Of a stretch of DNA of 27,426 nt, positions 10,721 through 12,951 are shown one piece after another. The DNA lies in the IMG/VR virus record IMGVR_UViG_2660238683_000003, positions 1 to 27,426 of that record. One strand, given 5' to 3'. How positions within the stretch are numbered: the first letter of the stretch is position 1; each line of letters opens with the position of its first letter. The notes below the pieces were generated by a model. It did not search any database. It saw only the letters and a list, made by a program, of their open reading frames with translations, and was not told the DNA's origin. The translations under genes and the position numbers were made by a program. Origin of the DNA: a virus. Its lineage: Duplodnaviria; Heunggongvirae; Uroviricota; Caudoviricetes.

Positions 10721-12951
10721 GCAAGTCTCACAATATAGTTATATGCAATGTTTTTTACGGTGTTTTCCGCATTACCAGTAGCGTTAACCGTGATGGTATG
10801 TCCGTGCGCACCCAATGCCAAAGTGTGTGCATGGGCACCAATACCTACGGTGTGGTTATGCTGACCAATATCGACAGTATGGGCATGTGCTCCGGCAGAG
10901 CTTGACACCTGGTTGGTTCCTGATACCTGTACGCGTTGTTTACCCCCGATGGAGTCACCACCATAGCGACCACCGACAGTGTGCGTATGCGCTCCTGTAT
11001 TGTTTGTTGTTTTTGTGCCGTGGTTAAACGTGCTGACTGTTTTTGTCCCGTAATCAAACGAACTGGTTGTTTTCGTTCCCAAATCAGTACTTGATGCACT
11101 TGCGCTGTGGGTGTGCGATTTAATACCGTCCTGTTCCTGAGACAATACAGCACGACCACTGGCGGGTTTGCCCTTGATTGTCCAGCCACGCATATCAGGG
11201 ATCACACCAGATGGATACGCTACTGCAAGTTTTGGGTATGCAGACTTATCAAAAGTTTGCCCCTGCATAATAGCATAACCTGTAGGTACTACATCAGAAG
11301 GCCACGGGATTGGGGCGCCGACTGGATAAAACTCTGCCGGAGGATGGGCCGACGTGTAAAGCTGCGCCCACGGCGACCAGTTTGCGTCGGTCGTATCCCG
11401 CCGCGAACGAATATACGCAGGAGCATGAGCGCCGCTGGTTCCACTCCAGCCAATAAGTAATTCACCCTCTCCTACTGCGGCTGCACCAGTGAGATGAAGC
11501 ACATTACCATAAGCTGTTGGGTAGCCATTGTTGTATGCCTCATACATCTGCAATCCAGTAGCAGCACCTTGCGTTGTACCGGTAAGCGCAGTAACGCGTC
11601 CTCTAGACGTAATTGTTGGTATCGAAATGTTCGTAGAACCATCGAATCTGACGCCATTAATGTTTATGGCTGTTTTCAATTTCGTCGCGGTGTCGGCGTT
11701 CCCTGTCAGCGCCCCGGTGATTCCGCCGTTGAAAGTCTGGCGCGCACTCCATGTGTTAGCCGTGCTCAACAGGGGGATCTTTTCACCGCTGGTACCGAGT
11801 TCTCTTAAACCAAGGTATTGGATAACGGCCAGTGTGCTTGTTTTAGCCAGAATATCGCGACCGACTGACGTTAAATCAGTCTGCGCTACCGTATCCTTAC
11901 CAGTGAAATAAGGCAGTTTGTTTGCACCAGTCGCAAGGGCAGCGAGCGCGGTTAAAGTTGCATCCAGAGGCTGTTTACCTGCCAAGGCATTTGTCATCGT
12001 GGTAGCAAAGTTCGGATCATTGCCCAGTGCTTCTGCAAGCTCATTCAGGGTATCAAGAGCTTCAGGTGATGAGCCAACCAATGCAGAGATAGCAGCCCGT
12101 ACGTAAGCAGTCGTAGCGATCTGCGTATTGTTTGTGCCCTGTGCAGCCGTAGGCGCGGTTGGCGTTCCTGTCAGACTCGGGCTTTCTATTGGCGCTTTGG
12201 TATCAGCAAGATCTTTTACAGACTTAACGGCTTTAGGGGTCGCCGCCATTGTTTCGCTGTCGCTGTTAGTTTCGCTACTGAGCTGAACTAATCCCTTTTG
12301 CGTTGTGCTTGCATCCTGCGCCGTATACTTGCTTTTCGCCAGATCGTAGGCTTTTTTAACCGCCAGCGAACTTGCAGCAACATCACTTCTGGTACTGGTT
12401 ACAGAGTCTGAAATATCAATGCCGATCGTGCGGTTGATACGCTCGGATGTATCAATCATCTCCTGGGTAATGGCAGATACACCAGCAGGGATATTCACCG
12501 TACAAACAAGCAGCTCTCCATCTCCTAACTGATATGAATCGGTATAGGTTCTGGCAATAAATTCAGCCGCATAAATATGTGACGCTGTATTAACCTGATA
12601 GGTATCTTCTCCAAGGAGGTATCTTCCCTTTAGCACAATTGCATATTTCTTACCTGCGCTAAGTGCAAGAGAAATATCCTTACGATGCTGAATAGTTACC
12701 TGGTAGAATTCACCAATATCCACTGACGCTGCGCCAGCAGTTTTATCACCATCCACTGAGGTGATTAACAGGTTCATCCCACCACCAGGCTTAGGTAAGA
12801 AACCGGCATAAAATCCAGGATCAACAATTCCCCTGAATTTTCGGTTTAGCGCGGCTGACAGATATGGTTCGTGGTATTGCACATCAGCCACCAGAGCCAA
12901 CGACTCGGGTGATGGGTAAGTAACCGATGTGACAACTGTAACGTCATTCAT
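10717..12951 (-). CDS. S: Tail fibre protein (S-like), 744 aa from first ATG
   Basis: C-terminal GAHxHT repeat region typical of phage tail-fibre tips. Lies upstream of U and contains a cix-like crossover site mid-gene. ORF-track start 13038 overlaps the R-like gene and is non-ATG; trimmed to ATG 12951 with AAGGAT SD. Confidence 0.85.
11800..11825. other. cix/gix/hix-like 26-bp DNA-invertase crossover site inside the tail fibre gene
   Basis: TTCTCTTAAACCAAGGTATTGGATAA has the AAACCAAGGT core and GGATAA half-site of Hin/Gin/Cin-family sites (compared from memory). Lies at about codon 375 of 744, consistent with a constant/variable junction. Confidence 0.5.

Follow-up and report, generated by a model that had tools for sequence, protein, structure and literature searches.

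Genes and features of the fibre region

The DNA analysed here, hereafter called the window, is the stretch of 27,426 nucleotides given as positions 1 to 27,426 of IMG/VR record IMGVR_UViG_2660238683_000003. We assign it to a P1-like (Punavirus-type) plasmid prophage, based on the 97-99% identity of its flanking modules to P1, and the entire window is collinear with P1-like plasmids. By blastn against the P1 locus, positions 5360-7081 match P1 darA, hdf, lydB, lydA, and the late promoter at 99%, positions 12082-19900 match Sc, R, 16, bplA, pmgA, and sit at 97%, positions 11351-12162 match proximal Sv plus Sc at 84%, and positions 7082-11350 have no P1 homology (Table 1). P1 fills the corresponding interval with lydC, cin, cixL, Sv', U', U, and distal Sv, all of which are gone from the window. 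The GC content is 0.30-0.37 over positions 7100-9500, compared with 0.46-0.50 in the flanks.

Table 1. Features of the fibre region, in window coordinates
Feature	Position	Strand	Basis or remark
lydA holin	6692-7021	-	left end of replaced region; 99% P1 homology ends at 7081
Stretch of 4.27 kb with no P1 homology	7082-11350		blastn and GC content
109-aa ORF, weak HTH match, phrog_20491 (function unknown)	7149-7478	+	left edge of the replacement
Hexapeptide-repeat acetyltransferase	7503-8054	+	roughly at the position of P1 cin
GT4 glycosyltransferase	8041-9189	+	roughly at the position of P1 Sv'/U'
Tail-fibre assembly chaperone (Caudo_TAP, tfa)	9242-9826	-	matched to the new tip; not an orthologue of P1 U
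Macro-domain ORF, 289 aa, phrog_2613 (function unknown)	9851-10720	-	between S and tfa, in the imported cassette
Chimeric fibre gene S, 744 aa	10717-12951	-	alignment with P1 S and domain matches
New fibre tip with Collar domain and HxH repeats	10717-11350	-	distal part of S
Remnant, proximal end of the former C-segment	11351-11812	-	part of the inverted repeat common to P1 Sv and Sv'
Relic cixR, 26-bp Cin crossover site	11800-11825	+	26 of 26 bases as in P1 cixR
Gene R, first of the fibre operon	12963-13397	-	conserved with P1

The left end of the replaced region is also marked by the late promoter of lydA, at about 7050-7068. A direct repeat of 25 nt (80% identical, at 7050-7074 and 13428-13452) corresponds on the minus strand to the P1 late promoters LPdar and LPs, including their -22 box and -10, so that the replaced region is flanked on either side by intact signals for late transcription.

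Inside the replaced region, the low-GC cassette (7100-9500) lies on the opposite strand, in the place of P1 cin/Sv'/U', and holds the HTH-like ORF, the acetyltransferase, and the GT4 glycosyltransferase. The last of these is annotated in relatives as a lipopolysaccharide N-acetylglucosaminyltransferase, and the window protein also matches the Pfam family 'GT4 in conflict systems' (8e-12). The cassette possibly consists of lysogenic-conversion genes that modify surface polysaccharide.

The remainder of the replaced region is a cassette of fibre tip, macro-domain ORF, and tfa with 92% DNA identity to the P2-like phage Chuche, which shares the same three genes. The start of the macro-domain ORF and the stop of S share 4 nt. 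The Pfam Macro match of the ORF covers residues 44-169, and its last ~45 residues contain three HxH motifs (GAHIH, GAHSH, GAHSH), as does the needle-like tip of S, a hint that its product may associate with the fibre. In the related plasmid p1919D3-2 this ORF has been called 'frameshifted' by RefSeq despite being equal in length to that of Chuche.

The chimeric fibre gene and the position of the site

The open reading frame of S spans 10717-13038 on the minus strand, and alignment with P1 S places the true start at the ATG at 12951. Residues 1-380 correspond to P1 Sc with one b-repeat fewer than in P1, residues 381-534 correspond to P1-type proximal Sv (154 codons), and a tip that is 76% identical to the fibre of Chuche begins at about residues 512-535, where the protein switches from P1-like to Chuche-like. 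Judged by these alignments, S is a three-part chimera of P1 Sc, P1-type proximal Sv, and a foreign tip. The Sc part carries a single copy of the 222-bp 'b' element (12082-12162, compared with 7121-7565 of the P1 locus, L001), which in P1 stands in tandem as b1/b2. The missing P1 repeat is reflected in the overlap of the two P1-matching blocks, 11351-12162 and 12082-19900, and the shaft of S would thereby be about 74 residues shorter than that of P1.

Decay of the fibre and macro-domain genes, as RefSeq fragment and frameshift calls in p1919D3-2 might imply, was considered and rejected, since S in the window is a single uninterrupted ORF and the macro-domain ORF has the length of its Chuche counterpart. 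The fragment calls have the appearance of an annotation artefact caused by the mosaic nature of the protein.

The Cin/cix system of P1 belongs to the Din family, together with Gin/gix, Hin/hix, and Pin/pix. Within S lies the 26-bp sequence TTCTCTTAAACCAAGGTATTGGATAA (11800-11825, plus strand), which occurs once in the window and, with up to 3 mismatches allowed, was matched in none of 100 dinucleotide-preserving shuffles. It is identical at 26 of 26 bases to P1 cixR as annotated in NC_005856, where the feature is described as 'recombination site cixR; region of Cin recombinase binding' and the crossover lies between 36480 and 36481, which puts the central AA of the window site at 11812/11813. 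The half-sites TTCTCTTAAACC and TTATCCAATACC, read directly, agree at 8 of 12 positions around this 2-bp core, and such imperfectly symmetric 12-bp half-sites with a 2-bp core, within 26 bp that match an experimentally defined site, are the marks of a crossover site of the Cin/cix type (Din family). The partner site of P1, cixL (TTCTCTTAAACCAAGGTTTAGGATTG in NC_005856), has the same inner half-site as cixR and an outer half with 4 differences, and the more distant P1-like phage D6 has both cixR and cixL exactly as in P1.

The minus strand of the site encodes V-I-Q-Y-L-G-L-R-E, about residues 376-384 of 744, and the site aligns to the Sc/Sv boundary of P1 S, that is, to the constant/variable junction of the tail-fibre gene. 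The initial annotation had pointed to a sequence resembling the 26-bp sites of Hin/Gin/Cin/Pin at the midpoint of S, marking the constant/variable junction as in P1; the placement holds on both counts, and the resemblance turns out to be identity with cixR itself.

Beyond the crossover, the P1-like remnant extends for 459-462 nt at about 80% identity to each of the two P1 copies, with its first 144 nt at 98-99%. Positions 11351-11823 also match P1 Sv', on the opposite strand, and hence the remnant is the part that in P1 forms the inverted repeat of the C-segment. The right-hand breakpoint of the replacement lies within this repeat, 459 nt inside the former invertible segment.

Missing partners of the site

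We searched the window for each component of a functional invertible segment of the P1 C-segment type, namely a second site, an adjacent serine invertase, an enhancer, and an alternative tip, and found none of them there. With P1 Cin as query, tblastn gave nothing better than E=1.5 in the window. On both window strands there is no other 26-mer within 7 mismatches of cixR or cixL, nor one that comes within a total of 6 mismatches of a pairwise combination of the three half-sites of P1. The 72-bp P1 enhancer, which lies inside P1 cin, is absent from the window sequence, a comparison that an unrelated enhancer would escape. Sv-like and tfa-like sequence each match only once in the window, which has no alternative promoterless fibre tip and chaperone in opposite orientation.

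Wild-type DNA invertases of the Cin class are described as requiring two inverted sites and, in cis on one and the same supercoiled DNA, an enhancer bound by Fis (PMC3798978). With no partner site, cis enhancer, or invertase of its own, the 26 bp of the window would be unable to support inversion, and the lone cixR most likely functions only as codons. On the sequence evidence, it is an exact P1 site left without recombinase or partner.

Probable loss of the Cin/cix switch by recombination with foreign DNA

In light of this, how did an exact cixR come to stand alone? We consider it very probable that a P1-like plasmid prophage lost its Cin/cix switch by recombination with foreign DNA. The ancestor of the window prophage would have carried the tail-fibre switch, and recombination would have deleted lydC, cin together with the enhancer that it contains, cixL, Sv', U', U, and distal Sv. 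In their place would have come a cassette (fibre tip, macro-domain ORF, and tfa) of a type known from P2-like phages, and the low-GC set of HTH-like ORF, acetyltransferase, and glycosyltransferase. With the right junction falling 459 nt into the former repeat, cixR was preserved intact together with the 154 most proximal codons of Sv, and this surviving part would now serve in the shaft of a chimeric fibre of single specificity.

A junction made by Cin itself was considered and rejected: with 459 nt between breakpoint and crossover, the replacement is not a Cin reaction. It is best read as ordinary mosaic recombination.

The initial annotation had interpreted the locus as a fossil of an invertible C-segment, with neither a cin-like recombinase nor an inverted second site. 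The tblastn search and the 26-mer scan of the window bear out the missing partners, and the fossil reading gains support from the true cixR, the 459 nt of P1-like remnant, the absence of partners, and debris in sibling elements. Its further statement that the second half of the segment was replaced is right as to the replacement and too narrow as to its extent, as distal Sv, U, U', Sv', cixL, cin, and lydC have all gone. The gene that it named U is a Caudo_TAP chaperone gene of different origin, whose match to P1 U is only a 35-aa local one.

The direction of change bears on an alternative that we regard as improbable, namely that this lineage never had an invertible segment and that the 26 bp are conserved fibre codons which Cin-type recombinases adopted as a site in other lineages. 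No debris of cin, U', or Sv' is present in the window, as this alternative would have it, and the site is part of a 144-nt block conserved at 98-99% across the family, so that the conservation is not specific to the 26 bp. Against it, cin adjoins lydA/lydC in each of P1, P7, and the distant D6, the cixL and cixR sequences are identical between the two phages compared for them (P1 and D6), low-GC foreign DNA starts directly after the lydA promoter in the window, and the outer half-site is exact although the neighbouring Sc sequence differs from P1. In addition, cin-less siblings retain pieces of the switch: two IMG/VR contigs (L009 and L045) keep only 74 N-terminal Cin residues, with no cixL, and the cin-less phage vB_EcoM-Ro157c2YLVW (NC_050153, locus L083) has a 79-aa U' fragment beside lydA (1951-2187). 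Such debris of cin or U' makes loss the likely direction. Loss from a cin-bearing ancestor is the parsimonious account, which for the window lineage we infer from the family.

Could the lone site have been kept by selection? It has been retained exactly in 45 of the 46 cixR-type copies found by a flank-anchored search, and it could in principle serve as a docking point at which Pin-type invertases of the host or of a co-resident prophage splice new receptor-binding modules onto the fibre shaft. Cin homologues, mostly pinE-like, are present in 3755 of 5426 complete E. coli genomes (69%), and Pin, Gin, Hin, and Cin are known to be able to replace one another. Salmonella phage SJ46, whose site joins an outer cixR half to a foreign inner half with a pin-linked segment beyond, would be one product of such splicing. 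The breakpoints speak against this: the window junction is 459 nt off the crossover, and the 51 IMG/VR relatives with enough flank to be surveyed break at about 87, 144, 180, 410, 459, and 600 nt, never at the crossover. As read from their positions inside the segment, the breakpoints of the window and of these 51 relatives are ordinary fibre mosaicism. A recombinase could be supplied in trans by the host, but the requirement for two sites and an enhancer (PMC3798978) leaves the lone cixR with nothing to pair with, and rare events at weak secondary sites may be conceivable. Coding constraint and recent common ancestry suffice to account for the conservation, and in cin-less vB_EcoM-Ro157c2YLVW the site (L083 5346-5371) already has one core substitution (AAACC to AAATC, Gly to Asp). 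We therefore hold a selected docking function to be very unlikely, and return to loss of the switch as the preferred account.

Because the window is less than a third of a replicon of ~96 kb, cin and a partner site could lie elsewhere on the replicon and make the site the working half of an inversion system, a reading that is scarcely credible given two complete plasmids ~99.5% identical to the window that have no Cin homologue, second site, or P1 enhancer, and Cre-like integrase as their sole annotated site-specific recombinase. These plasmids, the two closest complete ones, on which the absence of partners beyond the window rests, are p1919D3-2 of E. coli (NZ_CP046005), 99.6% identical to the window over 22.5 kb, and pRHB31-C17_2 of E. 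fergusonii (NZ_CP057257), collinear with window positions 94-27336 at 99.5% identity. In both complete sequences the best tblastn match to Cin has E above 5; no second cix-like site occurs within 7 mismatches in p1919D3-2 or within 8 in pRHB31-C17_2; and the P1 enhancer is absent from pRHB31-C17_2 and represented in p1919D3-2 only by a 13-nt chance match. The whole-replicon check that the initial annotation had proposed thus turned up neither a cin-type invertase nor an inverted partner in these relatives.

The same two plasmids yielded observations on other parts of the element. Window positions 2027-3330, in a 995-aa ORF upstream of ddrA at the position of ddrB, are unaligned with p1919D3-2 and collinear with pRHB31-C17_2, and we read this stretch as another mosaic patch, in the anti-restriction region. 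The cargo of pRHB31-C17_2, unusual for a phage-plasmid, includes narU, narH, narW, and narI, nitrate reductase genes of chromosomal type (L117 1455-5344, L118 44469-45857), with a copy of ISKpn26 just upstream of narU, and the ompC porin gene (L118 17131-18243).

Occurrence and significance of the orphan site

An exact search for the 26-mer in IMG/VR returned 76 loci, in 13 of which the whole interval from cixR to lydA is visible. Five of these 13 combine a full Cin with an exact, inverted cixL, and the other eight have neither full cin nor cixL. One of the cin-less eight (L014) has the gene arrangement of the window, with acetyltransferase, glycosyltransferase, and macro-domain proteins that are 100% identical. 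In PLSDB, where P1-like plasmids account for 644 hits, the 6.8-kb region is covered to at least 80% by 13 plasmids, whose hosts are E. coli, E. fergusonii, and E. albertii and which include p1919D3-2 and pRHB31-C17_2, and there are many further cin-less variants with tfa and a serine acetyltransferase. Among complete E. coli genomes, eight cover at least 80% of window positions 1-12000, replaced region included. The cixR-Sc region has 524 occurrences there, spread over 390 records, and cin (at least 80% identity) occurs in about 305 records; a rough comparison, with the record sets not intersected, suggests that the P1-like fibre genes of these genomes mostly have no repeat partner.

The variability of this region is known. 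The genes lydC, cin, Sv', U', U, and S make up 'Region 3', one of eight hypervariable regions of P1-like phage-plasmids, and in JL22 tfa and an acetyltransferase gene replace U and part of S (PMC9603915). The hypervariability of the fibre region, with cin-less variants and loss of the switch, has been reported (PMC9603915; PMC6906374). Hence the orphan cixR state is frequent and already described in the P1-like family.

What might this mean for the phage? The P1 host-range switch has in all likelihood been lost from the window prophage, leaving one fixed chimeric fibre, which probably confers a single fixed receptor specificity and a fixed host range, instead of the two alternating specificities of P1. 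The orphan cixR matters little beyond annotation, where it offers a handy marker of fibre-region state for the classification of P1-like phage-plasmids. More promising than the site are its imported neighbours, the macro-domain ORF and the acetyltransferase and glycosyltransferase, which may modify the cell surface.

Comparison with known systems

The closest comparison is with P1 itself, whose cixR has the same 26 bp, the same position at the Sc/Sv junction, the same reading frame, and the same inverted-repeat flank on the Sv side as the window site; the window differs in having no cixL, cin, enhancer, or rest of the C-segment. The cin-less P1-like phage-plasmids (JL22, vB_EcoM-Ro157c2YLVW, and the pO111_2 type, 'variable region 3' of PMC9603915) resemble the window in that the stretch between lydA and S is replaced by genes of the tfa/acetyltransferase type and a single fixed fibre is present. 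From these relatives the window is set apart by its Chuche-like tip, its macro-domain ORF, and its additional GT4 glycosyltransferase.

Salmonella phage SJ46 (NC_031129) likewise has a P1-like Sc and has kept the outer cixR half-site, and it differs from the window in that its site is a hybrid and its invertible segment a replacement that brings its own pin, with a truncated cin alongside. The hybrid site is TTCGCCTAAACCAAGGTATTGGATAA (locus L116, 6995-7020), homology to the window stops inside it, and the truncated cin lies beside the oppositely oriented pin (L116 2769-3706). From its sequence, the segment of SJ46 looks as if it had been replaced by exchange at the crossover, a signature from which cix sites would sometimes have served as module junctions, whereas the junction in the window lies 459 nt away, inside the inverted repeat.
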